Below, in pieces: positions 1 through 35,073 of a stretch of DNA of 64,000 bases (the stretch's first letter is position 1; every line of letters begins with the position of its first letter). A program made the translations under genes and the position numbers. The notes beneath the pieces are model-generated. The model was not told the origin of the DNA and searched no databases. It was given only the letters and a program-made list of their open reading frames with translations. Source of the stretch: Escherichia coli (GTDB lineage Bacteria; Pseudomonadota; Gammaproteobacteria; Enterobacterales; Enterobacteriaceae); assembly GCF_003334355.1 (NCBI RefSeq), contig NZ_QOWP01000020.1, one strand, 5' to 3'.

Positions 1-1
1 G

Positions 2-619
2 GAAAAACGAGTATTTTTAGTCATCCTGTTTACCTCTTTCTCAGGGAGTTTAGTCTCCAGGATTTCCGGGGCGGTTCAGAAGGAGGGGTATCGCCTACGC
101 TTTCATACCGGCAATAAGCAACGTATTTATTCCCTTTTGCATGACGGGAGCGCCGATCTCGCTGTTACCGCATCTATGCCTGATGACCGTCTGTACGGCT
201 ATGCACATCTACTGACTGAACGCATGCTCCTTGTTCATGCTCCCGCCATGTCAGAGATCATCGGATCAGAACCTGGTGCTGAAACGCTTGCCTCATTACC
301 GCTGATTGCTTATGACGAAGAGTTGCCACTGATTAGAGCGCTCTGGGCCTCCATGTTTCAGAGAGCCCCTGAGATGCAGGCTACATTCACCATTCCGGAT
401 TTACGTATTATCCGCGACTTGGTCTGTGACGGCCACGGGTGGACAGTGCTGCCGGATTATCACTGTGACAATGACCTGAAAAGTGGTCGCCTGATTTCAG
501 TGACACCTGCAGACCTCGCTCCGACTAATCATCTTTATCTGGTCTGGAACAAAAGGACGGCTAATAACAGCCGAACCGCCTATGTTCGGGATTACATTCT
601 TAAAACGTTTCCGCGTTGA
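2..619 (+). CDS. LysR-family transcriptional regulator, C-terminal effector-binding part only (5' end is off-window)
   Basis: The frame of track ORF 137..619 stays open back to nt 2 (EKRVFLVILFTSFSGSLVSRISGAVQKEGYRLRFHTGNKQRIYSLLHDGSADLAVTAS...). The sequence looks like a LysR substrate-binding domain. No HTH is visible because the N-terminus lies upstream of the window. Confidence 0.65.
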   Translation, partial: EKRVFLVILFTSFSGSLVSRISGAVQKEGYRLRFHTGNKQRIYSLLHDGSADLAVTASMPDDRLYGYAHLLTERMLLVHAPAMSEIIGSEPGAETLASLPLIAYDEELPLIRALWASMFQRAPEMQATFTIPDLRIIRDLVCDGHGWTVLPDYHCDNDLKSGRLISVTPADLAPTNHLYLVWNKRTANNSRTAYVRDYILKTFPR

Positions 620-655
620 TGTTTGAAACGGATGATTGGCGATGCGTATCATAAG

Positions 656-694
656 TTACGTATGTCCGCTTCTGGCACAAAGCAGACGCCCACT
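656..694. repeat. Hairpin repeat copy A (core 664-687: gtccgctt-ctggcaca-aagcagac), preceded by TTAC
   Basis: Read directly from the sequence. 8-nt inverted arms with one mismatch flank an 8-nt spacer. 28/38 nt are identical to copy B at 4329-4367, in direct orientation. Confidence 0.8.
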
Positions 695-749
695 CTCACG
701 CGAATGCTTTGCCCTTGACTTGCCAACAACCGTATCGCTTGCTCCGCAA

Positions 750-2042
750 CTATGGTTTTTTATTAGAATCTTCGCCACTAAATAAATTATAATAAATTGA
801 TTTTATTAGATATCTGTCAGAATCTATATGGTCAGCACGAGTAGCATGCTCTAATGTTTCAAATGCTAGGGTTTGTGCGGCTTCAGCAAAAATTCCAGGC
901 CAACCCTTACTCAGCATCGACAGTCCTTTAAGTACCCTTATCTGAATTTCCCTCATACTGGCACCATCGCGCGCAACAGGTGAGAAAAAGTCTTCAAGTA
1001 GATCGTTATTCTGAAGTGGTGCAACATGTACAGAAGGATATTTCACTTCTATTTCATCAGATTTATTCTGCGCGTAAGCGGAAAGTATACGTACACCTCT
1101 GCCAATGACATCAATGGCGGTTCCAGGATCGTTCACTGCGGGGGAAAGGGCTCGGCAGGCTATTTCGGCCATGACGCTAAGACAAAATCGGGGGTCCTGA
1201 GCAAATGAACGTACATCCGAGACAATAATCGTCTCAAGTAAATCGGTGCTGATTGATGACTCCTGGCCCTGACTCAGGTACAAAACTGGCGTGGACGGAT
1301 GTATGAAACTGCCCGGCTGCGCCACGAGGTATACATGACGGGGATCATTGGTCAGCAGCTTGCTGAGTTTCACCATATCAACATATTCAACATAGCCAAT
1401 CTTTTTCGGATAAACTGCAACCGTTCCTTTCGGCTGTTCATTGTTCTCAAGCCATGGATATCCGCCGAGACAGGGATTTCTTGCTCTCGCAATAAATGTT
1501 TCGATGGCCGCCTGTTCTACTTTTGCCGTTGTCTCACCAACCCTCCCCAGAGAGGTCAAATGCTGTATCCAGCGAAGCAATGTGATGAGGATTAAGGCAA
1601 TGACAACCAGTGTTACAATGAATAAAATGACTCTCCCCCTTTCTCCATAAGCTCCCATATTGAGGGCAATAATCCCTACCAGACTGAAGAGAAAAGAACC
1701 GATGAAGGTGGCCAGTACATTTTGTGTGGTGACGTCTTCAACAACTAAACGAGTAGCTCTGGGAGTCACATTAGTAGTGGCTGAACCGTAGGCTGTGACC
1801 ATGATGCTCAGCGAAAATGTGGTCACTGCCAGCATACTCGATGCCAGTATGTTCAGAATGTTATCGACTGCTTCCGCACCAACCTTCACGGAAACCGACT
1901 CAGGTATCATTGATTTAAAAAGAATTGATAAAAGGGCCGTTATTATTGCGACAATTGCGAATAACGTTGCCCTGAACCATAGTTTTTTAAATGTCTGCTT
2001 CAGCATCCATTTCCAGCGTGAAATCATTCTGCATTCCCTCAT
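750..2042 (-). CDS. Integral membrane protein, DUF2254-like (4 N-terminal TM helices plus a soluble C-terminal domain)
   Basis: 430-aa ORF. Four hydrophobic helices lie in residues ~20-165, including a motif resembling DUF2254 (ATRLVVEDVTTQNVLATFIGSFLFSLVGIIAL). The coding sequence is AT-rich. An alternative start is Met6 (nt 2027). The family assignment is from memory. Confidence 0.55.
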   Translation of the reverse strand: MRECRMISRWKWMLKQTFKKLWFRATLFAIVAIITALLSILFKSMIPESVSVKVGAEAVDNILNILASSMLAVTTFSLSIMVTAYGSATTNVTPRATRLVVEDVTTQNVLATFIGSFLFSLVGIIALNMGAYGERGRVILFIVTLVVIALILITLLRWIQHLTSLGRVGETTAKVEQAAIETFIARARNPCLGGYPWLENNEQPKGTVAVYPKKIGYVEYVDMVKLSKLLTNDPRHVYLVAQPGSFIHPSTPVLYLSQGQESSISTDLLETIIVSDVRSFAQDPRFCLSVMAEIACRALSPAVNDPGTAIDVIGRGVRILSAYAQNKSDEIEVKYPSVHVAPLQNNDLLEDFFSPVARDGASMREIQIRVLKGLSMLSKGWPGIFAEAAQTLAFETLEHATRADHIDSDRYLIKSIYYNLFSGEDSNKKP

Positions 2043-2062
2043 ATTGCAGCCGGGATAAATAA

Positions 2063-2083
2063 ATGCCGCCTCTGTGGCGGCAT
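2063..2083 (-). terminator. Rho-independent terminator downstream of the BCCT transporter gene
   Basis: Stem atgccgcc/ggcggcat with a 5-nt loop. On the minus strand it is followed by tttattta. It lies in the 48-nt gap between the two minus-strand genes. Confidence 0.6.
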
Positions 2084-2090
2084 GTTGCTG

Positions 2091-4094
2091 TTAACGAACC
2101 AGATGCAGGAAGTGCAGGTGTTTTTCGTACTGGTCCAGTATGTCATTAATCAGCTGTTCCTGATTCCAGCCCATTACATCATAATTTTGGCCGCCCTCTT
2201 TGAGATAGACTTCAGCGCGATAATATCGATGTTGTTCACTCTGCTGCTCATCATTATCCAGCGCAGCGAGCGCGAAGGTCGGTGAGTTATACCCGCGAAG
2301 CCTCACTTCATATATATAATTCAGCTCGTTGCCCAAATCGACTTCAAGGCGAATACGATCCTCGGCGGCGTCACTGATGTGGCTTATCGTTCCCTGCTTG
2401 TTAAGTTCCTCCTGAACCAGCGTCATGGCGGGTTGGATAATGTCGTCCATAAAACGTTTCACAAGAGAGCGCTTCGGCAAATACGCGATATTGCGTAACC
2501 TTCTCTGCCAGGGAATTGGGTTACGTGCAGCCGTAGGAGCAATAGTCGCCATGCTAAGGCTTTCACGCTTGGTCAAATCCCGACGCAGGGCTTTTAACAG
2601 TCCGTATATGGATATTAATAAGATAACTGAGAAGGGCAATGCACTCGCTATCGTTACGGTTTGCAACGCACTCAGCCCCCCTGCGATCAGCAGGGCAATA
2701 GCAACAACGCCCATGAGCGATGCCCAGAAAATTCGCTGCCAGACGGGCGTGTTTGCCACCCCACCTGATGCCAGAGTATCCACAACCATTGCCCCCGAAT
2801 CAGCAGACGTTACAAAGAAGACGATGACCATCGCCATTGCAATGAATGACAGCACGGAAGAGAACGGGAAATGCTCCAGGAAATTAAACAGGGCAAGCGC
2901 AACATCCTGCTGAACGGTATTGGCGAGGTCAGTGGCGCCCTGGTTCATGATGAGATAGATGGCGCTGTTTCCAAACACCGTCATCCACATGAGCGTAAAG
3001 CCGGCGGGAACAAACAACACGCCAGTCACGAACTCACGAATTGTCCTGCCGCGGGAAACGCGTGCAATGAACATACCTACAAACGGCGACCATGAAAGCC
3101 ACCATCCCCAGTATAATAATGTCCAGCCCCCCAGCCAGTTGCTCGACTTGGGTTCATACGCGTAAAGGTTGAACGTTTTACTCACCAGTTCCGACAGATA
3201 ACCACCCGTATTTTCCACAAATGACTTCAGCAGAAGCACAGTGGGACCCAGGCACAAGACCAGCGCCAGGAGCAACACCGCCAGGCCCAGATTAAGCTCA
3301 GACAGGATGCGTATTCCCTTGTCCAGGCCGGACACCACCGAAATCGTCGCTAACCCCGTGATGACCACGATCAAAATGACCTGTACCGTTTCATTGATGG
3401 GCACGCCGAAAAGATGGTTCAAACCGGCATTCACCTGCAATACACCGTAACCCAGCGATGTTGCAACGCCAAAGACAGTGCCTATCACGGCGAAGATATC
3501 AACCGCGTGGCCTATAGGCCCGTAAATGCGATCGCCGATAATGGGATAGAGCGCAGAACGCAGCGTTAAAGGCAGACCGTGACGGTAACTGAAAAAGGCC
3601 AGAATCAGCGCCACGATGGCATAAATTGCCCATGCGTGCAGACCCCAGTGGAAGAACGTCAGGCGCATGGCTTCCTTCGCTGCCGCAACGGTCTCTGGAG
3701 TGCCGACAGGTGGCGAAAGATAATGCATCACAGGTTCGGCAACGCCAAAGAACATCAGGCCGATCCCCATCCCTGCCGAAAAAAGCATCGCGAACCAGGA
3801 GTGGTAGCTGAAATCAGGCTGCGCATGGTCTGGGCCCAGCTTTATATCACCGTAACGTGAGAGTCCAAGGAACGTGACGCTCAGTAAAATCAGGGCCACA
3901 GCAAGTATGTAGAACCAGCTGGCATTCGTGAAGATTTGTTGCTGAAGTAGTTTAAAATTTTTGTCGGCGACATCCGGGAATACGGCGGCAAAGGCGACAA
4001 GAAGGAAAATTAGCAAAGCAGATGTAAAGAATACCGCTTTGTTAATCTGGCTTGTAGACTTCTTTGGGGTTGTATCATTTTCACTCATAATCAT
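2091..4094 (-). CDS. BCCT-family transporter, BetT-like (choline/betaine-type osmolyte symporter) with a long cytoplasmic C-terminal domain
   Basis: The 667-aa ORF aligns by eye along its whole length with E. coli BetT (e.g. WFAMLFSAGMGIGLMFFGVAEP, RSALYPIIGDRIYGPIGHAVDIFAVIGTVFGVATSLG, GWTLLYWGWWLSWSPFVGMFIARVSRGRTIREF, C-terminal ILDQYEKHLHFLHL). It is a paralogue, not betT itself. Confidence 0.85.
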   Translation of the reverse strand: MIMSENDTTPKKSTSQINKAVFFTSALLIFLLVAFAAVFPDVADKNFKLLQQQIFTNASWFYILAVALILLSVTFLGLSRYGDIKLGPDHAQPDFSYHSWFAMLFSAGMGIGLMFFGVAEPVMHYLSPPVGTPETVAAAKEAMRLTFFHWGLHAWAIYAIVALILAFFSYRHGLPLTLRSALYPIIGDRIYGPIGHAVDIFAVIGTVFGVATSLGYGVLQVNAGLNHLFGVPINETVQVILIVVITGLATISVVSGLDKGIRILSELNLGLAVLLLALVLCLGPTVLLLKSFVENTGGYLSELVSKTFNLYAYEPKSSNWLGGWTLLYWGWWLSWSPFVGMFIARVSRGRTIREFVTGVLFVPAGFTLMWMTVFGNSAIYLIMNQGATDLANTVQQDVALALFNFLEHFPFSSVLSFIAMAMVIVFFVTSADSGAMVVDTLASGGVANTPVWQRIFWASLMGVVAIALLIAGGLSALQTVTIASALPFSVILLISIYGLLKALRRDLTKRESLSMATIAPTAARNPIPWQRRLRNIAYLPKRSLVKRFMDDIIQPAMTLVQEELNKQGTISHISDAAEDRIRLEVDLGNELNYIYEVRLRGYNSPTFALAALDNDEQQSEQHRYYRAEVYLKEGGQNYDVMGWNQEQLINDILDQYEKHLHFLHLVR

Positions 4095-4328
4095 TTATTC
4101 CATTAATTAAATCCGCACTGGATAGAAGGTACTACCTCTCACAGAGTAGCAAAGTTCAACTGGCTATGCGGGGTTAATCGGAATGCATGGTGGAATGAGT
4201 GCCGATACAAATCATCCTATATTCTAAGGAGTTTTAAGTTACTCAGCCTGCCAATTACTGGGGCATTTAATTTGTATGATCTGTATCAAAGCTGGGATAT
4301 AAGTTAAGTGAAGTATATTAGGCACGAA

Positions 4329-4367
4329 TTACCAGCGTCTGCTCTTGGCACAAAGCGGACAACCACG
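4329..4367. repeat. Hairpin repeat copy B (core 4337-4360: gtctgctc-ttggcaca-aagcggac), preceded by TTAC
   Basis: Read directly from the sequence. It has the same 8-8-8 geometry as copy A. Its left arm matches the complement of A's right arm, and the reverse also holds. Confidence 0.8.
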
Positions 4368-4428
4368 CTAGCTCTACCCTGTGCCACAAAATGTCAATTT
4401 GCATCTGAACTAATGCACTTTAATCTCG

Positions 4429-4851
4429 TCACTTCAATAAATACCGAACATCCCCCTGATAAAACGACAATATGCGCTGCATAACTTCGCTCTTCCGGCA
4501 CTCGCGACAGATTATGTTTAGGCGACTGTCGTAGCGACGTATTTCTCCGTCAGGTAATGACCAGATAAGGTCCGGATCAACCACAACCGGTTTCTTCAGC
4601 TTTGCCCTCGATAATTTTTTGCGGGCATTTTGCCAGTCTTTACGAGCCTGTTCAGACGGGAATAACCCGTAGCCAGAATTGTATACATCGCCACTGGCAA
4701 CCAGCTCTCTGGCCAGAACGCTCATCAGATATCTTGTTGCCCCAGTTTTAGCTTCCAGTTGTCGTAACGTCTCGCGCCCACTCTGGCGTACGAGTTCAAG
4801 AACCTGCCCTTTAATTTTTTCCCGCTCTTCTTGTGTAAAAACTTTTGCCAC
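4429..4851 (-). CDS. Hypothetical prophage protein (140 aa), last phage-like ORF before the cargo
   Basis: The ORF is co-directional with, and 40 nt downstream of, the replication gene. The N-terminal part looks winged-helix-like (GRETLRQLEAKTGATRYLMSVLARELV), followed by a basic central stretch. I do not recognise the family. Confidence 0.45.
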   Translation of the reverse strand: MAKVFTQEEREKIKGQVLELVRQSGRETLRQLEAKTGATRYLMSVLARELVASGDVYNSGYGLFPSEQARKDWQNARKKLSRAKLKKPVVVDPDLIWSLPDGEIRRYDSRLNIICRECRKSEVMQRILSFYQGDVRYLLK

Positions 4852-4891
4852 AAGCCCTCCTGAAAATTACCTCATGACCAGAAATTAACAC

Positions 4892-5968
4892 TTACCCCCT
4901 GAAGCCCGGCGGAATTTCGTTATCCGGTTCAGAAATATGATTCACACAACGCTGGTTGTTCGTGCCGCTTACCGGGAGCAACCAGGGGTTCTCAAAATTC
5001 CGGTCCGGTCCAAAAAACGTCGTCGCTCGCTGAACAAATTCCGTTCCCGTTTTCCCGGTAGCCGCCAAGTATCTTGCGTAACGCCTCACGCCATCCAGCA
5101 TGGCCTCTGGTGGCACCCCCTCGCGTAATCTGGCCTTCCAGGCACTGAAAGCGGATTTCTTCGGGTTTGCCCCAGCACGCAACGGGTACTCCCGCCAGAC
5201 CTGTTCGAACACATCCGGATAATCCACTCGTCCCACAGACTGCCCGGTGTTTTCCGGGACTACCCGATCGGCTTCCCGCTGAATGGCGGAATCGGCTTCA
5301 GGCTGCTGCAGTTGGTGTGATTGCTCCGCCCTTGCGGTCATCACCTGCTGCACAGCGCCCGAATCGGCTTTCAGCGCATACGCTGAATCGGCTTCCGGTG
5401 TCGTGCCTGCTGGCTGACCAAGATTGACGGTCTGAACATCCCCTGCCTGGTTCGTGGCGTTTTTTACGCCATGGACCATAGTGTTTTGATCTTCTTGATC
5501 TGTATCTTTATCTGTATCTTTATCTGTCGTGACTCGTCGTGACATGTGCGTGACATTTCGTGACGCGCCGTGACAATCGCCATTTTGTTCCCGCTTTCTT
5601 TCCCTCTCTCGCTGCGCCCTCTTGCGCTCTGCAGGAGATTTTGCGGTTTGCGAAATATTGCCGTTGTCCTCTTTAAGCACCTGGCGTTTTTCCCATCCAG
5701 TGATTAAATCACCATCAAGTACCCGCCCCTGCATCGTCTGCAAAATTGAATCAATTACCTCTTCTGTCACGTCGAGCGCACTTGCCAAATCTTCTGTCGT
5801 GACATCAATGTGACCTCGCGTGACATTTCGTGACGCGCTCACCAGGAGGTGGATATACACTGCCATCACTGTTGCAATTGGCTGTCCTGACACCCTGGCA
5901 ATTGTTCGCCACTTAGGGTCATTTGGCATGTCATGCCATAATCTGAGCCAGGCGTTAGCCATACTCAC
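4892..5968 (-). CDS. Prophage replication protein, YdaU-like (DUF1376-type, lambda O analogue)
   Basis: 358-aa ORF. Its position after the cro/cII-like genes matches the lambdoid replication module. It starts MSMANAWLRLWHDMPNDPKWR. The C-terminal segment YPDVFEQVWREYPLRAGANPKKSAFSAWKARL is typical of prophage replication proteins. The gene contains phased iterons. The family name is from memory. Confidence 0.6.
   Translation of the reverse strand: MSMANAWLRLWHDMPNDPKWRTIARVSGQPIATVMAVYIHLLVSASRNVTRGHIDVTTEDLASALDVTEEVIDSILQTMQGRVLDGDLITGWEKRQVLKEDNGNISQTAKSPAERKRAQRERERKREQNGDCHGASRNVTHMSRRVTTDKDTDKDTDQEDQNTMVHGVKNATNQAGDVQTVNLGQPAGTTPEADSAYALKADSGAVQQVMTARAEQSHQLQQPEADSAIQREADRVVPENTGQSVGRVDYPDVFEQVWREYPLRAGANPKKSAFSAWKARLREGVPPEAMLDGVRRYARYLAATGKTGTEFVQRATTFFGPDRNFENPWLLPVSGTNNQRCVNHISEPDNEIPPGFRG
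5499..5574. repeat. Putative prophage origin, part 1: AT-rich 12-bp tandem (tctgtatcttta x2.4, 5499-5527) abutting five phased CGTGAC iterons
   Basis: CGTGAC occurs at 5528, 5538, 5549, 5559 and 5569, giving spacings of 10/11/10/10 bp. All copies are in the same orientation and lie inside the replication gene. Confidence 0.6.
5793..5838. repeat. Putative prophage origin, part 2: second cluster of four phased (C)GTGAC iterons
   Basis: Copies at 5798, 5809 (tgtgac), 5819 and 5829. The 46-nt block 5793-5838 is a diverged copy of 5523-5568, exactly 270 bp away. It includes a perfect 21-nt repeat gcgtgacatttcgtgacgcgc (5548-5568 and 5818-5838). Confidence 0.6.
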
Positions 5969-6033
5969 CTCTTTTGATACCGAATCTTTTTACTCACAAA
6001 TTGCCGGAAGTGATCCGGTATGAATATTGCGCG

Positions 6034-8284: not shown

Positions 8285-8725
8285 ATCAATAACTCTCAAC
8301 TGTAAGGGTATTGAAATGTTAACACAAGCTCTCGCTGTAGGGGTATAGCCGAGACCACCGAAGCCCGGAGGTGGTGAAATAAAACCGGGCACAACACGAA
8401 GGCGCATTTCCGATATCCATAAAGAGTCGGTCTTGTCTGTTAAATTTAAATGGTGGGAGTGCGCCTCCGGTTGTAAATAACGACATTGCTGTGTGTAGTC
8501 CTGGCGGCATCAGTTTTTTTCTTGAAGTTCGGCTGATGTCCGCCCTTTTTAAAGTGAATTTTGTGATGCGGTGAATGCGGCTAAGCGCACGTGGCACAGT
8601 TAAAAGTCATGTTAGTCCTTATTGGTTTGGGTGGGAAAGCCGACTGTAATTGTTAACTGGTTGCAGTCACCTGGAGGCACCAGACACCGCATCAACAAAG
8701 TTCATTTGTAAAAATGGAGATAATT

Positions 8726-8947
8726 ATGATTGCACATCACTTCGGAACTGATGAAATACCACGTCAGTGTGTGACTCCTGGCGATTATGTTCTTCATGAA
8801 GGCCGGACATATATTGCCTCGGCAAACAATATTAAAAAGCGAAAACTATATATTCGTAACCTGACCACAAAAACATTCATTACTGACCGCATGATTAAAG
8901 TCTTCCTCGGTCGTGATGGTTTACCTGTAAAGGCGGAGTCATGGTGA
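8726..8947 (+). CDS. kilR: Rac prophage FtsZ inhibitor KilR
   Basis: 73-aa product [38 protein letters not shown]... within track ORF 8714..8947. Confidence 0.9.
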
Positions 8948-14955: not shown

Positions 14956-15006
14956 TTGCAAAGTTTGCCCCCAATTTGCCCCATTTAGTACCAGAGAACT
15001 GAAATA

Positions 15007-15942
15007 ATGCAAGAAAATCAACAAATTACAAAGAAAGAACAATACAACCTGAACAAATTACAAAAACGTCTGCGTCGTAACGTGGGCGAAGCCATTGCTG
15101 ACTTCAATATGATTGAAGAAGGCGATCGCATCATGGTTTGCCTCTCCGGGGGTAAAGACAGCTATACCATGCTGGAGATTCTGCGCAATTTGCAGCAAAG
15201 CGCGCCAATCAATTTTTCGCTGGTGGCTGTTAACCTCGATCAAAAGCAACCGGGCTTCCCGGAACACGTTCTGCCCGAGTATCTTGAAAAGCTGGGCGTT
15301 GAGTACAAGATTGTTGAAGAGAATACTTACGGTATCGTGAAAGAGAAGATTCCAGAGGGCAAAACCACTTGCTCACTGTGTTCTCGCCTTCGTCGCGGTA
15401 TCCTTTATCGTACCGCAACGGAACTGGGGGCGACGAAGATCGCGTTGGGTCACCATCGTGACGATATCCTGCAAACGTTGTTCTTAAATATGTTCTACGG
15501 CGGTAAGATGAAAGGTATGCCTCCGAAACTGATGAGCGATGATGGCAAACATATCGTTATTCGTCCGCTGGCCTACTGCCGCGAGAAAGATATTCAGCGA
15601 TTTGCCGATGCAAAAGCGTTCCCGATTATTCCGTGCAACCTGTGCGGTTCACAGCCTAACCTGCAACGTCAGGTGATTGCTGACATGTTGCGTGACTGGG
15701 ATAAACGTTATCCAGGGCGTATCGAGACGATGTTCAGCGCGATGCAGAATGTGGTGCCGTCGCATCTGTGCGATACCAACCTGTTCGATTTCAAAGGCAT
15801 CACCCACGGTTCTGAAGTGGTTAACGGGGGTGATCTGGCGTTTGATCGCGAAGAGATCCCACTACAACCGGCGGGCTGGCAGCCAGAAGAAGATGAAAAT
15901 CAGTTGGATGAGTTACGGCTGAATGTGGTTGAAGTGAAATAA
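15007..15942 (+). CDS. ttcA: tRNA 2-thiocytidine(32) synthetase TtcA
   Basis: 311-aa ORF with the PP-loop SGGKDS and Cys motifs. It matches K-12 TtcA. In Rac lysogens the 5' end is supplied by the prophage. Confidence 0.95.
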
Positions 15943-15952
15943 CCAGGATAGC

Positions 15953-15976
15953 GCCCGATGCGCAAGCGTATCGGGC
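15953..15976 (+). terminator. Hairpin after ttcA
   Basis: Stem gcccgat/atcgggc with a 10-nt loop, 11 nt after the stop codon. Confidence 0.4.
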
Positions 15977-15989
15977 TACTCTTATGGAG

Positions 15990-16022
15990 GCCGGATAAGA
16001 CGCGGCCAGCGTCGCATCCGGC
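15990..16022. repeat. REP (palindromic unit) element
   Basis: gccggataagacgcggccagcgtcgcatccggc matches the E. coli REP consensus. It lies between convergent ttcA and dbpA. Confidence 0.8.
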
Positions 16023-16070
16023 AATCCCGAATAAGATGTTTACTCTTGCACCCGGCAATTCAACATTTCA

Positions 16071-17444
16071 TTATTTTAATAACCGCACCCGGCACGTTTT
16101 TCCTTTAATCTTCCCGCCCTGTAACTGTTTCCATGCTTTATGAGCAACAGCCTGACGGACCGCGACATAGACATGCGCCGGATGCACGGCGATTTTGCCA
16201 ATATCTGCGCCATCAAGCCCGATATCTCCTGTCAGTGCACCTAATACATCACCCGGGCGCATTTTGGCTTTTTTCCCGCCATCGATACACAACGTTGCCA
16301 TTTCTGCTTCCAGCGTCGCAATGGAACTATTAGCTGGCGGCGTTTGCCAGTTAAGTTTTATCTGCAACATGTCAGAAATGATATTGGCCCGCTGTGCTTC
16401 TTCCGGAGCACAGAAACTGATCGCCAGACCGCTATTTCCTGCACGAGCTGTACGACCGATGCGATGTACATGAACTTCAGGGTCCCACGCCAGCTCAAAG
16501 TTCACCACCAGCTCAAGCGATTTAATATCCAGACCACGCGCAGCAACATCAGTCGCGACCAGTACACGGGCGCTACCGTTAGCAAAACGTACCAGGGTCT
16601 GATCGCGATCGCGTTGCTCCAAATCGCCGTGTAATGACAATGCACTTTGCCCTACTTCATTCAGCGCGTCGCAGACAGCCTGGCAATCTTTTTTGGTATT
16701 GCAAAACACCACGCAAGAGGATGGCTGATGCAAGCTTAATAACCGTTGCAACAGAGGAATTTTGCCTTTGCTGGATGTCTCATAAAATTGTTGTTCAATG
16801 GGTGGCAAAGCATCTGTTGAGTCAATTTCAATCGCCAAAGGATCGCGTTGCACTCGTCCGCTGATTGCAGCGATGGCTTCCGGCCAGGTTGCCGAAAACA
16901 GAAGCGTCTGTCGAGATGCAGGCGCAAAACGGATGACATCATCAATGGCATCGCTAAATCCCATATCCAGCATGCGGTCGGCCTCATCCATCACCAGCGT
17001 ATTCAACGCATCCAGTGATACCGTGCCTTTTTGCAGGTGATCCAGCAAACGCCCCGGCGTTGCCACGATAATATGCGGCGCATGTTGCAACGAATCACGC
17101 TGCATACCGAACGGTTGACCACCGCACAACGTCAAAATTTTGGTATTTGGCAGAAAACGCGCCAGCCGACGCAATTCACCTGCCACCTGATCCGCCAGTT
17201 CACGCGTAGGACACAGCACTAAAGCCTGGGTTTGAAATAGCGACGCATCAATTTGCTGTAACAAGCCGAGGCCAAAAGCCGCCGTTTTGCCGCTGCCGGT
17301 TTTCGCCTGCACGCGAACATCTTTTCCGGCAAGGATCGCCGGAAGCGCGGCGGCCTGCACCGGCGTCATGGTTAAATAACCCAACTCATTAAGGTTCGTG
17401 AGTTGGGCGGGAGGCAAAACATTCAGGGTAGAAAAAGCGGTCAC
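16071..17444 (-). CDS. dbpA: ATP-dependent RNA helicase DbpA (DEAD-box)
   Basis: 457-aa ORF with the motifs AKTGSGKT, DEAD, SAT and HRIGRTAR. Confidence 0.95.
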   Translation of the reverse strand: MTAFSTLNVLPPAQLTNLNELGYLTMTPVQAAALPAILAGKDVRVQAKTGSGKTAAFGLGLLQQIDASLFQTQALVLCPTRELADQVAGELRRLARFLPNTKILTLCGGQPFGMQRDSLQHAPHIIVATPGRLLDHLQKGTVSLDALNTLVMDEADRMLDMGFSDAIDDVIRFAPASRQTLLFSATWPEAIAAISGRVQRDPLAIEIDSTDALPPIEQQFYETSSKGKIPLLQRLLSLHQPSSCVVFCNTKKDCQAVCDALNEVGQSALSLHGDLEQRDRDQTLVRFANGSARVLVATDVAARGLDIKSLELVVNFELAWDPEVHVHRIGRTARAGNSGLAISFCAPEEAQRANIISDMLQIKLNWQTPPANSSIATLEAEMATLCIDGGKKAKMRPGDVLGALTGDIGLDGADIGKIAVHPAHVYVAVRQAVAHKAWKQLQGGKIKGKTCRVRLLK

Positions 17445-17473
17445 AATCTATTCTCGTGGTCATCGACGCAAAG

Positions 17474-17647
17474 TTAGCAGGCGCGTATCCTCGCAGATCT
17501 ACGCTCACGATGCGACAATTTAATCGGTTCTTCATCGGGTGGTGGGTCAGGCATGGGTTGCGGGCGAGGGATCGGATCGGGCACTGGAACAGGATCGCCA
17601 GGAATCGGTTCAGGGACAGGAATTTGCAAATAAATAAGTGTCGTCAT
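17474..17647 (-). CDS. Small proline-rich protein (57 aa), immediately upstream of dbpA
   Basis: Below the ORF-track cutoff. A good SD precedes the start (gagggaaatATG). The product is MTTLIYLQIPVPEPIPGDPVPVPDPIPRPQPMPDPPPDEEPIKLSHRERRSARIRAC. The stop is 29 nt before the dbpA ATG. This may correspond to a K-12 small-protein annotation, but I am not sure which one. Confidence 0.5.
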   Translation of the reverse strand: MTTLIYLQIPVPEPIPGDPVPVPDPIPRPQPMPDPPPDEEPIKLSHRERRSARIRAC

Positions 17648-17704
17648 ATTTCCCTCTGGTCATTGGGTGGACTCTTAAAGGGTAGACGCTGATAAATAAC
17701 AGGC

Positions 17705-17826
17705 AAAAAAAAGCCGACTCATCAAAGTCGGCGTCGTACGAATCAATTGTGCTATGCAGTAATTCAAAAAAGGAAGTAAGACAATATGGAGCGCAACGCC
17801 CATCGCTTGACGTTGCATTCACCTGC
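17705..17826 (-). ncRNA. fnrS: FNR-activated small RNA FnrS
   Basis: The reverse complement reads GCAGGTGAATGCAACGTCAAGCGATGGGCGTTGCGCTCCATATTGTCTTACTTCC...GCCGACTTTGATGAGTCGGCTTTTTTTT. I recognise this as the 122-nt FnrS including its terminator. Confidence 0.9.
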
Positions 17827-17861
17827 AAGAGAGATATTGCCCTGAATGGGTAGAGAGTTTA

Positions 17862-17875
17862 TTGACTTCGCTCAA
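17862..17875. promoter_or_regulatory. FNR box of the fnrS promoter
   Basis: ttgacttcgctcaa fits TTGAT-N4-ATCAA. It is centred about 42 bp upstream of the FnrS 5' end, which is class II spacing. Confidence 0.75.
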
Positions 17876-17921
17876 ACTTTGCGGCGTTTTTGTATACAGA
17901 CAGCCGGAAAAATTGCTTTTG

Positions 17922-18926
<1,005 letters not shown>

Positions 18927-19159
18927 TTATTTTGTAGTCTAGCCTTCTGGCCCTGTTACGCAACATCTCATCACCCCATTACCCTGAAATGATTAATAAA
19001 ATTCTGTCTAAATTGAATACAAAAAGCAAAATGCTTTTCCGTATACAAACCGTGTGAAGTGTTAAATAGCGTCTATCATTATCAGAATTATCTGATCATA
19101 TGACGTGGCTTTTTTGCGATCGGATAGCAACAAAAATTGATAAAAATAACGGGATCTCA

Positions 19160-20392
19160 ATGATTACGCACAACTTCAATACCCTGGACTTACTCACCAG
19201 TCCTGTCTGGATCGTTTCGCCCTTTGAGGAACAGTTAATTTATGCCAATAGCGCGGCGAAACTGTTGATGCAAGACCTCACGTTTAGTCAGCTACGAACC
19301 GGACCCTATTCCGTCTCCTCACAAAAAGAACTGCCGAAATACCTCTCCGATCTGCAAAACCAACACGATATTATCGAAATCCTCACTGTTCAGCGTAAAG
19401 AAGAGGAAACAGCATTGAGCTGTCGGCTTGTTTTGCGAAAGCTGACAGAAACAGAACCGGTGATTATTTTCGAAGGTATCGAAGCGCCGGCAACGCTGGG
19501 TTTAAAAGCCAGTCGCTCGGCAAATTATCAGCGCAAAAAACAAGGTTTTTATGCGCGCTTTTTTCTGACTAACTCTGCACCAATGTTGTTGATTGACCCG
19601 TCACGAGATGGACAAATCGTCGATGCTAACCTCGCCGCGCTCAATTTCTATGGTTATAACCATGAAACGATGTGCCAGAAACATACCTGGGAAATAAATA
19701 TGCTCGGGCGTCGCGTCATGCCTATCATGCATGAAATCTCGCATTTACCCGGTGGTCATAAACCTTTGAATTTTGTTCATAAACTGGCGGATGGTTCGAC
19801 TGGTCATGTGCAGACCTATGCCGGACCGATTGAAATTTATGGCGACAAGCTCATGTTATGTATTGTGCATGATATTACTGAGCAAAAACGGCTGGAGGAG
19901 CAGCTGGAACATGCTGCTCACCATGACGCGATGACCGGATTACTGAATCGGCGACAGTTTTATCACATTACGGAACCAGGCCAAATGCAGCATCTCGCCA
20001 TCGCTCAGGATTACAGCTTGTTGCTCATCGACACCGATCGTTTTAAACACATTAACGATCTCTATGGGCATTCTAAAGGTGATGAGGTGTTATGCGCCCT
20101 CGCCCGCACCCTCGAAAGTTGCGCTCGCAAAGGCGATTTGGTGTTTCGTTGGGGAGGCGAAGAGTTTGTCTTATTGCTACCAAGAACCCCACTGGATACC
20201 GCGCTTTCGCTGGCTGAAACTATCCGCGTAAGCGTGGCAAAAGTGAGTATTTCGGGCTTACCACGCTTTACCGTCAGCATTGGTGTGGCGCATCACGAAG
20301 GAAATGAAAGCATCGATGAACTGTTTAAACGCGTTGATGATGCTTTGTATCGGGCGAAAAATGATGGACGCAACCGCGTGCTGGCGGCATAA
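19160..20392 (+). CDS. dgcM: Diguanylate cyclase DgcM (YdaM), PAS-PAS-GGDEF
   Basis: 410-aa product from MITHNFNTLDLLTSPVWIVSPF... with the GGEEF active site. It lies inside track ORF 19100..20392. Confidence 0.9.
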   Translation: MITHNFNTLDLLTSPVWIVSPFEEQLIYANSAAKLLMQDLTFSQLRTGPYSVSSQKELPKYLSDLQNQHDIIEILTVQRKEEETALSCRLVLRKLTETEPVIIFEGIEAPATLGLKASRSANYQRKKQGFYARFFLTNSAPMLLIDPSRDGQIVDANLAALNFYGYNHETMCQKHTWEINMLGRRVMPIMHEISHLPGGHKPLNFVHKLADGSTGHVQTYAGPIEIYGDKLMLCIVHDITEQKRLEEQLEHAAHHDAMTGLLNRRQFYHITEPGQMQHLAIAQDYSLLLIDTDRFKHINDLYGHSKGDEVLCALARTLESCARKGDLVFRWGGEEFVLLLPRTPLDTALSLAETIRVSVAKVSISGLPRFTVSIGVAHHEGNESIDELFKRVDDALYRAKNDGRNRVLAA

Positions 20393-20412
20393 GCCGCGGA
20401 TGCGTCTCGAGA

Positions 20413-20976
20413 TCAACGACTGCGCTTAGCGTGGCGCTCCCAGTTTTCTTGCTTCGCCTGCGCCGTTTTACGTAGTGCGACGTAACACGCCCCGCTGCCG
20501 CCATGATGCGGTAGCGCGGTGCAATATGCCTGAACATCATCAAATTCGGTCAGCCAGCGCGCCACATAGCTGCGGACAATATTGGCATGCGATTTATCAT
20601 CCCGCCCTTTACCATGAATAATCAGCACGTTACGCAAACCATCCGCCAGGGCTTGTTGAATAAAACTGAACACCATTTTGCGGCACTCTTCCACCGGCTG
20701 GCGCAAAAGATTCAGGCTCGCCTGTTGCGGATATTTACCACTGCGCAGCTTATCCAGCACCCCATGTTGCAACCCTTCCCGCCGAAACTCCAGCGGCTGA
20801 CTTAGTGGGATGATGTCGAGAAATCCGGTGGTGAGGAAATTATCAAGCTGCAGCGTGTCGATACGCTGCGGCGCACGTTGGTTACGCGTTGGATGCCAGT
20901 GGACATCGGTAGCACGTTTCAGCGGCTGGACATCTTCCATGGCGTCAAGAAACAGCGATTTGTCGTCAAGGTTCAT
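20413..20976 (-). CDS. smrA: Smr-domain DNA endonuclease SmrA (YdaL)
   Basis: 187-aa ORF with a C-terminal Smr domain (LIIHGKGRD...). Confidence 0.9.
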   Translation of the reverse strand: MNLDDKSLFLDAMEDVQPLKRATDVHWHPTRNQRAPQRIDTLQLDNFLTTGFLDIIPLSQPLEFRREGLQHGVLDKLRSGKYPQQASLNLLRQPVEECRKMVFSFIQQALADGLRNVLIIHGKGRDDKSHANIVRSYVARWLTEFDDVQAYCTALPHHGGSGACYVALRKTAQAKQENWERHAKRSR

Positions 20977-32526: not shown

Positions 32527-32583
32527 AAGTTTCCCTCTAACCGACATTAAAATTGATGCGTAATTATTTGTTTCGCCTTAAAG

Positions 32584-32620
32584 AAATGCAAACAACTTCC
32601 ATCAAAAAAGTGACAAAGGA
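32584..32620. repeat. 37-bp direct repeat, copy 1 (upstream of mppA)
   Basis: aaatgcaaacaacttccatcaaaaaagtgacaaagga. 32/37 nt are identical to 35030-35066. Confidence 0.8.
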
Positions 32621-34890: not shown

Positions 34891-35073
34891 ATGAAAAATG
34901 TACTGATTCTTGGTGCTGGCGGTCAGATAGCCCGCCATGTGATTAATCAACTGGCAGATAAGCAAACCATTAAACAAACTTTATTTGCCCGTCAGCCAGC
35001 AAAAATCCACAAACCCTATCCAACTAATAAAATGCAAACAACTTCCGGCAAAAAAGTGATACAAGATCGATGA
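34891..35073 (+). pseudogene. ymjC: Truncated NAD(P)-binding (Rossmann) gene remnant, ymjC-like
   Basis: The 60-aa ORF starts with a classical dinucleotide-binding motif (MKNVLILGAGGQIARHV) but ends after 60 codons. The divergence point coincides with the 37-bp repeat. Confidence 0.6.
35030..35066. repeat. 37-bp direct repeat, copy 2 (upstream of mpaA, inside the ymjC remnant)
   Basis: aaatgcaaacaacttccggcaaaaaagtgatacaaga. See copy 1. Confidence 0.8.

Follow-up and report, generated by a model that had tools for sequence, protein, structure and literature searches.

The two 24-nt sites A and B, which lie in direct orientation 3673 bp apart in a 64,000-nt stretch of Escherichia coli DNA (the window), are probably the junctions of a 3.6-kb transporter-gene cassette seated in a docking site of a Rac-like prophage. 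Comparison of sequences suggests that the cassette is part of a cassette-swapping system that is widespread and probably operated by a small tyrosine recombinase.

Anatomy of the sites and the cassette

The window is E. coli Rac-type prophage DNA, and its relevant features are collected in Table 1. The interval between A and B encloses exactly two minus-strand ORFs, the DUF2254 and BCCT/BetT-like genes, the latter scoring 752 bits against the NCBIfam BetT subfamily (cutoff 695). This content, the sequences and coordinates of both sites and their extended similarity (28/38 identical, 656–693 against 4329–4366) agree with the first-pass annotation, as do the reciprocal arm mismatches, by which the left arm of A pairs with the right arm of B and the left arm of B with the right arm of A. 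The 8-8-8 geometry given there has to be replaced by 9-6-9 with the centre TGGCAC, which fits best. A ccac motif does follow both sites, but it starts 3 nt after them (690 and 4363), leaving a gap of 2 nt and not 5.

Table 1. Coordinates of the sites, genes and flanks in the window.
Feature	Position	Strand	Sequence	Remarks
Neighbouring cargo block, right end	1–663	+		whole block: MFS, gamma-glutamylcyclotransferase and LysR genes; this end holds the LysR 3' part, stop at 619
Site A	664–687	+	GTCCGCTTCTGGCACAAAGCAGAC	putative hybrid R-type junction, attL-like
Site A, left half	664–672		GTCCGCTTC	source: previous occupant or target
Site A, centre	673–678		TGGCAC	
Site A, right half	679–687		AAAGCAGAC	part of cassette
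Cassette body, putatively mobile	688–4336	−		3,649 bp; includes its own 242-nt upstream region (4095–4336)
DUF2254 membrane-protein gene	750–2042	−		430 aa; Pfam PF10011, E 1.6e-92
BCCT-family transporter gene, BetT-like (choline/betaine)	2091–4094	−		667 aa; Pfam PF02028, E 7e-199
Site B	4337–4360	+	GTCTGCTCTTGGCACAAAGCGGAC	putative hybrid R-type junction, attR-like
Site B, left half	4337–4345		GTCTGCTCT	part of cassette
Site B, centre	4346–4351		TGGCAC	
Site B, right half	4352–4360		AAAGCGGAC	part of phage backbone docking site
Phage backbone right of hotspot	4361–4851	−		homology to thousands of prophages begins at 4337
DUF977/Ren-like (LygF) gene	4429–4851	−		PHROG 142, Ren-like exclusion protein, E 4.7e-45
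Phage replisome-organizer gene	4892–5968	−		backbone landmark, from annotations

The palindrome family to which both copies belong has the form GTCCGCTTT / TGGCAC / AAAGCGGAC, in a consensus built from 49 distinct enterobacterial and 186 alpha- and betaproteobacterial sites. Judged by their sequence, A and B are double-stranded core-type sites with 9-nt inverted arms and the 6-bp asymmetric centre TGGCAC, the arrangement of lox-, FRT- and dif-like sites, in which inverted arms surround an asymmetric spacer of 6–8 bp. In 64 kb the motif GTCYGCTYYTGGCACAAAGCRGAC matched only A and B, even at three mismatches, and 100 dinucleotide-preserving shuffles gave 0 matches.

The position of the two sites just downstream of minus-strand stop codons (62 nt from DUF2254 to A, 68 nt from DUF977 to B) would also suit terminators or regulatory stem-loops at moron boundaries, whose location at cassette ends would then reflect the way in which lambdoid phages are mosaic at gene boundaries. 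A moron classically brings a promoter and a terminator of its own. Neither site was called in a terminator scan of 400–4900, however, neither is followed by a T-run on either strand or combines a G+C-rich stem with a T/U tract, and no Rfam family matched. A and B also fold no better than shuffled sequence (z 0.18 and −1.17), whereas the perfect palindromes at empty positions fold far better (z −4.0); hybrid sites being poor hairpins, structure is not what is maintained. As the cassette occurs with identical ends on a plasmid and on non-phage islands too, and half-sites segregate with their flanks, this explanation is very improbable.

Recurrence of the cassette

The cassette occurs elsewhere as well. 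It is 99.86–100% identical over its full length (1–3649) at loci L001, L008, L010, L012, L003 and L004, and at least six contexts were recorded, comprising four phage neighbourhoods, a plasmid (L003) and another chromosomal island (L004). The cassette ends on identical bases in every context, its inner half-sites being constant and the outer half-sites varying with the context. With junction B as query, the phage side matched from position 188 and the cassette side up to position 211/212. In thousands of E. coli prophages, homology to the DUF977 side sets in at the first base of site B and continues rightwards, and in other replicons homology to the cassette side stops at the last base of that site; the homology breakpoints fall exactly on the 24 nt. 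Such sequence comparisons suggest that the cassette is mobile.

A variable prophage hotspot bounded by two site classes

Lambdoid (pro)phages have a variable hotspot between hokD and the ren-like DUF977 gene, and every cargo block in it is bounded by sites of this family. The annotated order in NZ_CP019259 is hokD, MFS, GGCT, LysR, DUF2254, BCCT, DUF977. Window positions 79–6000 correspond to 15001–20922 of locus L001; the rest of the LysR cargo block and the left docking site of the hotspot lie upstream of the window start, and the left site was located at L001 12520–12543. Phages Tritos, Evi and mEp460_ev081 have the hotspot too, as do dozens of IMG/VR prophage contigs. Its cargo is diverse: the R sites have 23 different flanks on their left and the L sites 19 on their right, and other cargo blocks likewise terminate exactly at the site end; PD-T7-1 is cargo in mEp460_ev081 and in L304. 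Identification of A and B as attL and attR of the phage's own integrase was rejected, as the sites are internal and are shared by phages with different integrases; intR/xisR and the ttcA junction of the window prophage lie about 9–10 kb rightwards, near 13.7–15.0 kb.

Two classes of site are distinguished by their centre, R-type with TGGCAC and L-type with GAGCGA. All 98 sites (57 R and 41 L) have one orientation with 0 inverted, and none of them has an L/R hybrid centre. Comparison of 57 loci revealed that the 9-nt half-sites are inherited with the adjacent flank around an invariant 6-bp centre, and positions 9 and 16 of the site segregate with the flank as well. Of 43 sites with the backbone flank aaccacgctagc, 41 have AAAGCGGAC as their right half, and 10 different left halves occur opposite it. 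At the left end of the cassette, the right half AAAGCAGAC accompanies the flank gcccactctcac in 12/12 sites, facing six different left halves and flanks; at its right end, GTCTGCTCT accompanies the flank cgaattaccagc in 14/14 sites, and the linkage is 10/10 for the flank of the hyp269 cargo. Confinement of exchange to the spacer, each arm staying by its flank, is the behaviour of lox-, FRT- and dif-like sites, here seen comparatively.

Cassette-free positions agree with the earlier reading of A and B as hybrid junctions of an inserted, non-autonomous cassette. A perfect palindrome had been predicted where the cassette is absent, and it is present at the equivalent phage position: phage Evi, which has no cassette, carries GTCCGCTT TTGGCACA AAGCGGAC. 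The exact 24-mer predicted as parental target was found at the cassette-free positions of loci L031, L063 and L086. One before/after pair was obtained, in which 'accatctataat GTCCGCTG TTGGCACA AAGCGGAC' is cassette-free in nine loci and cassette-bearing in plasmid L003. The exact empty site of the window's own combination, the LysR gene abutting the 140-aa ORF, was absent from 5,426 E. coli genomes, and the exact empty sites of two other combinations were looked for and not found.

A candidate recombinase

No recombinase gene lies between the copies, as had been noted, nor anywhere in the 64-kb window, and 0 of the first 80 hotspot loci contained one. The best candidate for the enzyme would be a 200-aa tyrosine recombinase consisting of the catalytic domain only, whose gene is itself a site-bounded 0.7-kb cassette. 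It matches Pfam PF00589 (E 1.1e-17), and R51, K79, H148, R151, H174 and Y183 are conserved without exception in sets of 12 and 18 sequences of the family, which gives it the R-K-H-R-H/W-Y residues of the tyrosine recombinase superfamily; its fold is not confirmed by the AlphaFold model, given a mean pLDDT of 42.

The relation between this gene and the sites is an association, observed in flanking sites, a shared hotspot and a downstream site or half-site across the family. In 983 of the 5,426 E. coli genomes, homology to the recombinase cassette stops at the flanking L-type and R-type sites or a few bases from them, and the gene is found inside the same hokD–DUF977 hotspot in L301, L304–L307, L314 and L328. 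Its stop codon is followed by TGTGCCAR-RAGCGGAC in each enterobacterial context read, and homologues on viral contigs (about 63–64% identity) have a site-like palindrome with the centre TGACCC about 25 nt after the stop. In a diverse set of homologues, a half-site was present within 90 nt in 16/79, compared with 14/1,479 random windows. Any cassette-borne gene would adjoin such sites, so this link counts as only partly independent evidence.

The same palindrome outside the Enterobacteriaceae

The identical palindrome is a high-copy, intergenic, REP-like repeat in loci of alpha- and betaproteobacterial metagenome-assembled genomes, with a density of 0.45 per kb in the fetched loci. Locus L118 has 15 copies in 8 kb beside ordinary housekeeping genes, the palindromes often form doublets about 46 bp apart, and no cassette behaviour was seen in these loci. 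A high-copy dispersed repeat with arbitrary arm variants had been named beforehand as an outcome that would speak against hybrid junctions; the high copy number exists in these two classes only, whereas in E. coli the two copies in 64 kb are both cassette ends, the other sites are on mobile elements, and the arm variants are linked to their flanks and not arbitrary.

The palindromes could serve primarily for something else, such as protein binding or the structure of RNA 3' ends, with cargo shuffled over short homologies by RecET/Red, RecA or template switching and no dedicated recombinase involved. Besides the dispersed repeats, this is favoured by the RecE/RecT encoded by these prophages, by site positions 44–68 nt past stop codons and by the lack of any circle or tandem junction in IMG/VR or the 5,426 E. 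coli genomes. Crossovers driven by homology but limited to the identical centre would likewise yield flank-linked half-sites. The uninterrupted identity available for homologous exchange is only about 12–16 bp, however, and entry of an R–R unit into a single site requires a circular intermediate. Nor does it account for 98/98 co-oriented sites whose L and R centres never mix, for the poor folding of hybrid sites, or for the conserved gene of a tyrosine recombinase that accompanies the sites throughout a diverse family and is found in the same hotspot. We regard this explanation as unlikely, though it deserves more weight than any other alternative.

The first-pass annotation had also offered a single-strand element of the IS200/IS605 or REP/RAYT type, in which an HUH (Y1) transposase reads subterminal hairpins and TTAC is the target or cleavage motif. 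Direct hairpins do lie near both ends, TTAC stands 4 nt upstream of each (656–659 and 4329–4332), and the palindrome family is REP-like elsewhere. Hairpins of HUH elements, however, stay intact within the element, while here they are split, half going with the cassette and half with the context. In the other fully read contexts the left junction lacks TTAC, which is therefore incidental; no HUH gene occurs in any locus examined, and the site-associated gene encodes a tyrosine recombinase (PF00589) instead of a Y1 transposase. The E. coli element also differs from REPs and REPINs by its low copy number and its restriction to cassette boundaries on mobile elements. Membership in these families is contradicted by the split half-sites, and the proposal has next to no probability left.

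Relation to known recombination systems

No description of this putative cassette-swapping system was found in the paper library searched. It resembles integron cassettes (IntI/attC/attI) in that promiscuous, mostly recombinase-less units bounded by imperfect palindromes enter at a resident site and line up in arrays, that boundary sites are hybrids of neighbouring cassettes, that the recombinase gene is adjoined by its own atypical site, and that anti-phage genes are among the cargo. Assignment to integrons was nevertheless rejected: the sites measure 24–34 bp instead of 57–141 bp, have no GTTRRRY/RYYYAAC core and appear to cross over at the centre of the palindrome and not at its edge, and the candidate scored 53.6 bits against the XerA/integron-integrase model (cutoff 220), being a 200-aa catalytic domain unlike IntI. 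The cassettes here have their own upstream regions, occur in either orientation and sit in phage hotspots, islands and plasmids.

Counted with its flanking AY/RT bases, the site is a short 11-6-11-like palindrome around a 6-bp centre, as in Xer/dif and the Acinetobacter pdif modules; pdif modules are likewise recombinase-less and bracketed by such sites in many contexts, and among solved structures the XerD catalytic domain is nearest to the candidate (E 3e-5). The sequence is unrelated to E. coli dif (8/28 identities in one orientation, 7/28 in the other), and with symmetric arms in place of distinct XerC and XerD arms the sites were not assigned to Xer/dif, IMEX or pdif. A separate, dedicated small recombinase is associated with them, and the bracketing sites in the phage hotspot are direct, unlike the inverted sites of pdif modules. 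FimB and FimE are also about 200 aa with only the catalytic domain, and the candidate gave a weak match to the NCBIfam model for tyrosine-type DNA invertases, its 25.5 bits falling well short of the cutoff of 222; their target sites differ, and the outcome here would be cassette insertion and excision instead of promoter inversion.

Symmetric arms with an asymmetric spacer that sets orientation are shared with Cre/lox and FLP/FRT, and two spacer classes that never form hybrids are what incompatible spacers would give in recombinase-mediated cassette exchange. That exchange is an engineered concept, whereas the present system would be natural, with shorter arms, an enzyme without the N-terminal core-binding domain, and a heterospecificity suggested by sequence.

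Defence hotspots of P2 and P4 prophages and satellites, reportedly described by Rousset and colleagues in 2022, similarly combine a fixed position in a temperate-phage backbone with highly variable cargo that includes validated defence genes. The present hotspot belongs to the Rac/Qin-like lambdoid group, is located between hokD and the ren-like gene, and has its cargo delimited by specific recombination-type sites. P2/P4 prophage defence hotspots are treated by Vassallo et al. 2022 (PMC9519451), and term searches of that paper and of a 2026 paper on P2/P4 hotspots turned up no comparable sites.

A model for cassette exchange

The Rac-like prophage has two resident docking sites, one at each side of the hotspot: towards hokD an L-type site (GAGCGA), and 68 nt past the DUF977 gene an R-type site (TGGCAC). 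In the proposed mechanism, the DUF2254 and BCCT genes form an R–R cassette, the circle of which would bear one perfect site, GTCTGCTCT-TGGCAC-AAAGCAGAC. Recombination between this circle and the resident R-type site within the 6-bp centre would insert the cassette and leave two hybrid sites, which would be why the arms look swapped, and recombination of A with B would excise it again, the enzyme being supplied in trans. The anatomy, the linkage of half-sites to flanks, the cassette's identity across contexts, the common orientation and the association of the recombinase gene with the sites are direct observations; we infer that a circle forms, where cleavage falls, that the two centres are heterospecific and which enzyme acts. 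Having different centres, L and R sites should be unable to recombine with one another, which would keep the order of the hotspot while allowing whole blocks to be exchanged.

Prophage setting and anatomy of the sites

The DNA of the window is E. coli chromosome within a Rac-type lambdoid prophage, and the gene order from left to right in window orientation is hokD, the MFS, gamma-glutamylcyclotransferase and LysR genes, site A, the DUF2254 and BCCT genes and site B, followed by DUF977 (Ren-like/LygF), a replisome organizer, ydaT, ydaS and racR, and farther right by recE, recT, xisR, intR and ttcA. Sites A and B are therefore internal to the prophage, with the replication module on one side and the hokD/nin-like region on the other, and away from the prophage ends. 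Neither a tRNA gene nor a third site copy that might be a prophage att partner was found in the window, and the phage's own integrase was rejected as the source of the sites, as these are internal to the prophage and common to phages with different integrases.

Both 24-mers lie where the first-pass annotation had placed them, as direct repeats 3673 bp apart, and the reciprocal arm mismatch, the extended identity of 28/38 and the enclosure of only two minus-strand ORFs that it described were all recovered. The ccac motif starts 3 nt past each site rather than 5, and the TTAC motif, which had been proposed as an element signal, is incidental. A degenerate pattern covering A and B gave only 2 matches in the 64-kb window with up to 3 mismatches allowed and 0 matches in shuffled sequence. 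Other features of the window are listed in the table, among which the repeats of the replisome-organizer gene look like the origin iterons of a lambdoid replication module.

Positions of sites, cassette genes and other features in the window and in the comparison loci
Feature	Stretch	Position	Strand	Remarks
Site A	window	664-687		GTCCGCTT CTGGCACA AAGCAGAC
Site B	window	4337-4360		GTCTGCTC TTGGCACA AAGCGGAC
DUF2254 membrane protein	window	750-2042	minus	
BetT-like BCCT transporter	window	2091-4094	minus	
Bidirectional terminator-like hairpin	window	2063-2083		ATGCCGCC-loop-GGCGGCAT; intergenic BCCT/DUF2254, inside cassette
Direct repeats, replisome-organizer gene	window	5267-5398, 5536-5834		ATCGGCTTC units and GTGAC-rich 39-nt units 260 nt apart
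DicF-like antisense sRNA match	window	8490-8545	plus	39.1 bits, below the gathering score of 48; E 7.6e-6; immunity/kil region
Weak STnc100 match	window	8547-8733	plus	after the DicF-like match; immunity/kil region
42-nt direct repeat	window	32579-32620, 35025-35066		83% identical, 2446 bp apart, outside prophage
Cassette in Rac hotspot	window/L001, L008, L010, L012			four different left neighbours
Cassette on plasmid pC21A02010	L003			
Cassette in other chromosomal locus	L004			beside P4-type integrase and Drt3a
Decayed left site of diverged copy	L298; L299	8983-9020; 6001-6038		compared with window 4323-4360
R-type site, Qin prophage	L297	5982-6005		K-12 MG1655, NC_000913.3 ~1645981-1646004
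Degenerate site beyond flxA	L297	6973-6996		
R/L doublets	L132	81-146, 1016-1081		
R/L doublets	L296; L149; L304	11917-11982; 6620-6683; 5955-6020		
Sites near P4-type integrase genes	L004; L208; L101	817-2476; 2793-4123; 5047-6572		
Alpha/beta repeat loci, species-representative genomes	L088-L207	e.g. L118 1-8000, L089 5935-6892		
Recombinase in ICE-like element	L212-L215	9869-10700		Cycloclasticus type

Homology breakpoints and cassette contexts

A query of 411 nt across site B was compared with 5,426 complete E. coli genomes, and 3,587 of them matched, which puts matches to the docking site's phage-side flank in about two-thirds of these genomes. In very many prophages the match begins at query position 187-197, at the first base of B, and covers only what lies to the right of it, into the DUF977 gene. 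Plasmid L003 and the chromosomal locus L004 match only up to 211/212, the last base of B, the 24 nt of the site being the overlap between two unrelated homology classes. The 3,649-bp interval between the sites is 99.86-100% identical in six contexts, and the matches always begin at the base that follows A and end at the base that precedes B. The inner half-sites are constant in all six (...AAAGCAGAC gcccactc... at the left end and ...accagc GTCTGCTCT... at the right end), and the outer half-sites vary with the context.

A chromosomal copy, ~93-94% diverged and arranged acuR, DUF2254, BCCT, IS3, lpxM, is present in about 1,000 further E. coli genomes; its left site has decayed. The 14 nt to the left of this decayed site, gcagaattagcaac, resemble the cassette's own right end, gcacgaattaccagc, a likeness for which chance, an extended arm (many sites show GCAAY-site-RTTGC) and the remnant of a circle or tandem junction are possible explanations.

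The exact empty site for the window's combination, in which the LysR block abuts DUF977 as the first-pass annotation had anticipated for relatives, was present in 0 of the 5,426 genomes, and no full-length empty site was found for two other cargo combinations, although searches with these two showed that the adjoining cargo blocks are present at many other locations, their homology running out at the final base of the 24-mer. Neither IMG/VR nor the complete genomes yielded a circle or tandem junction.

Half-site linkage in the cargo hotspot

The hotspot was sampled in the phages Tritos, Evi and mEp460_ev081, the APEC O1 prophage and 80 IMG/VR prophage contigs retrieved via the DUF977 protein. 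Its conserved boundary on the hokD side is an L-type site, with centre GAGCGA ('gctaaccttcta GTCCGCTTT GAGCGA ...'), and that on the DUF977 side an R-type site, with centre TGGCAC ('... TGGCAC AAAGCGGAC aaccacgctagc'); all between these boundaries is variable, and among 117 sites in 57 loci the R sites have 23 different left flanks and the L sites 19 different right ones. Cargo blocks are sometimes stacked with extra L or R sites between them (loci L008, L010 and L304), and the cargo includes known or candidate anti-phage genes, PD-T7-1 in mEp460_ev081 and L304 and PDC-S15 in Tritos.

Half-sites are linked to the flanks that they adjoin. The backbone right flank carries AAAGCGGAC in 41/43 sites facing 10 different left halves, the cassette flank gcccactctcac carries AAAGCAGAC in 12/12 facing 6 different left halves, and the cassette flank cgaattaccagc carries GTCTGCTCT in 14/14. 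The flank accatctataat of the hyp269 cargo carries GTCCGCTGT in 10/10, with a right half of backbone type in 9 loci and of cassette type in plasmid L003; to judge from these sequences, the 9 loci and the plasmid represent the states before and after the DUF2254+BCCT unit was inserted. HUH elements (IS200/IS605, RAYT) were rejected, being contradicted by half-sites that are split between cassette and context. Site positions 9 and 16 segregate with the flanks and positions 10-15 are invariant within a type; the exchange would therefore fall within the 6-bp centre of a 9-6-9 site.

The 57 R and 41 L sites of these loci share one orientation without exception, the two centres differ at five of six positions, and no L/R hybrid centre was found among them. 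Short-homology recombination between REP-like elements, instead of a site-specific enzyme, is the serious rival explanation, to which the RecET genes of these phages lend weight, but it has to contend with the uniform orientation of the sites, the separateness of the two centres and the circular intermediate that is needed. A and B are, in our judgement, probably junctions at which a site-specific enzyme has recombined a mobile cassette with its surroundings.

Hotspot positions without cargo carry perfect palindromes, and the parental-target 24-mer that the first-pass annotation predicted occurs exactly in three comparison loci (L031, L063 and L086). Perfect sites fold far better than shuffles (z -4.0), whereas the hybrids A and B do not (z 0.18 and -1.17), and this contrast fits junction products of a double-stranded site, not selected hairpins. 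With these z values for A and B, a terminator or regulatory hairpin was rejected, since no T-tract follows the sites, a terminator scan calls neither and neither matches a known (Rfam) RNA family.

In the Qin prophage, an R-type site lies directly upstream of relB inside the annotated ORF ydfV, which may be a spurious ORF over the site, and the blocks of relBE and flxA resemble cassettes belonging to this hotspot. R-type plus L-type doublets, 40-42 nt apart at a single cassette boundary, occur in Phytobacter, CFT073, Pantoea brenneri and some prophages.

A candidate recombinase

A 200-aa tyrosine recombinase (PF00589) consisting of the catalytic domain only is encoded beside the cassette on plasmid L003. 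The best 120 of more than 8,000 matches are 76-100% identical and derive from Enterobacterales, Proteus/Providencia, Idiomarina, Cycloclasticus and Pseudoalteromonas, and the catalytic R-K-H-R-H-Y residues are invariant in the family. Among proteins of solved structure, the XerD catalytic domain is the closest in sequence (E ~3e-5), the predicted structure has a mean pLDDT of 42, none of the curated NCBIfam cutoffs is reached, and no close homologue was found in the cultured-phage database. For the sites, an XerCD/dif identity was rejected on sequence, 8/28 positions being identical to dif.

In every enterobacterial context read, a hairpin lies no more than ~10 nt past the recombinase stop, running into '...CAGCCC TGTGCCAR RAGCGGAC', in which the R-type centre stands between a canonical arm and, towards the gene, an atypical one. 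In plasmid L003 and loci L132, L301, L304 and L314 there is also an L-type site, ~40 nt upstream of the start, whose inner arm is atypical; the Providencia and Cycloclasticus contexts lack this site. The gene region matches in 983 of the 5,426 E. coli genomes (~18%), mostly, in the rows sampled, as a ~0.7-kb recombinase unit whose homology ends at or near its two flanking sites, and the modules neighbouring the gene in the CFT073 island, where the recombinase is WP_001305361.1, are likewise site-delimited. In seven IMG/VR prophage contigs (L301, L304-L307, L314 and L328) the gene lies inside the same hotspot between the backbone R and L sites, adjoining PD-T7-1 in L304.

The half-site CCANNAGCRGAC, with at most 1 mismatch, occurs within 90 nt past the stop in 16/79 metagenomic homologues (60-94% identity) versus 14/1,479 random windows, and viral-contig homologues (~63-64% identity) carry a site-like palindrome with a TGACCC centre ~25 nt past the stop. 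The association of recombinase and sites is a further point against short-homology recombination. On the strength of these sequence associations, we give about an even chance that the 200-aa recombinase is the enzyme acting on the sites; no copy of its gene is present in the window, and it would therefore act in trans. In a Cycloclasticus-type ICE-like element, the recombinase gene and a downstream half-site lie between arsenic-resistance and copper/cus blocks, and the cassette system may also organise metal-resistance cargo.

Wider distribution of the palindrome

The exact R-type pattern, with 21 specified positions and an estimated chance expectation of ~1 match in 596 Gb, matched more than 120 stretches in species-representative genomes. 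It brackets accessory blocks in other Enterobacterales, including SIR2 + ApeA-HEPN beside a P4-type integrase fragment in Pantoea, DUF1989 + LysE in Leclercia and RcnB in Pantoea brenneri, and the site-bearing loci of these other species contained none of DUF977, hokD, BCCT and DUF2254. Genomic islands have a site no more than a few hundred bases from a P4-type (Arm-DNA-bind_3) integrase gene, which in L004 is adjacent to Drt3a, and this suggests that islands and satellites possess integrase-proximal docking sites.

The same palindrome, ATGTCCGCT-N10-AGCGGACAT, recurs between ordinary genes as a high-copy intergenic repeat in MAGs of Alpha- and Betaproteobacteria, among them Pseudolabrys, Xanthobacteraceae, Hyphomicrobiales and Nitrosomonadaceae, with main centres TGGCAC and TGACCC and often as doublets ~46 bp apart. 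Spurious ORFs that start with MSAIGTKRT or MSALPPKADI arise from it. The high-copy dispersed repeat that the first-pass annotation had named as counting against its reading thus exists outside E. coli, in these MAGs, and not within E. coli; the alphaproteobacterial repeat speaks for short-homology recombination.

Proposed mechanism and significance

Under site-specific recombination, the DUF2254+BCCT unit would be an R-R cassette, and recombination of A with B within TGGCAC would produce a circle with the perfect site GTCTGCTCT-TGGCAC-AAAGCAGAC and leave GTCCGCTTC-TGGCAC-AAAGCGGAC behind. Run in reverse at any R-type site, the reaction would insert the cassette and give rise to the swapped arms. 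The differing, never-hybridising L and R centres would prevent deletion of the whole hotspot and permit block exchange. The comparisons show the anatomy, the half-site linkage, the orientation, the identity across contexts and the association of recombinase gene and sites; the circle, the cleavage positions, the incompatibility of the two centres and the enzyme are inferred from them.

The site mechanism is like that of simple tyrosine-recombinase sites of the lox/dif type and the cassette usage like that of integrons and pdif modules, but the defining features of integrons, Xer/dif and HUH elements are each lacking, and we rate the system as belonging with site-specific gene-cassette systems. 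Literature searches by sequence and by concept found no description of it, with incomplete coverage, so that earlier work may exist; nor did term searches within two papers on hotspots and defence systems. The full proposal, which we regard as evenly poised between right and wrong, is an undescribed cassette system, integron-like and mechanistically lox/dif-like, in which the conserved catalytic-domain-only recombinase would move recombinase-less cassettes between short palindromic docking sites in lambdoid-phage hotspots, integrase-proximal island positions and plasmids. The cargo would comprise transporters, toxin-antitoxin and anti-phage genes (for example PD-T7-1), two incompatible spacer classes would order the arrays, and the same enzyme-site pair would underlie the alpha/beta REP-like repeat.

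If true, the abundant REP-like repeat in soil Alphaproteobacteria would have a possible explanation, and a testable enzyme-site pair, made up of a very small recombinase and a 24-34 bp site with two natural spacer classes, could serve as a recombination tool. The sites would also be a simple sequence signature by which cargo could be delimited and new defence genes discovered. For temperate phages, the system would provide a concrete molecular mechanism for the swapping of accessory and anti-phage genes in their hotspots, and would explain how phages, genomic islands and plasmids come to carry the same small gene blocks.
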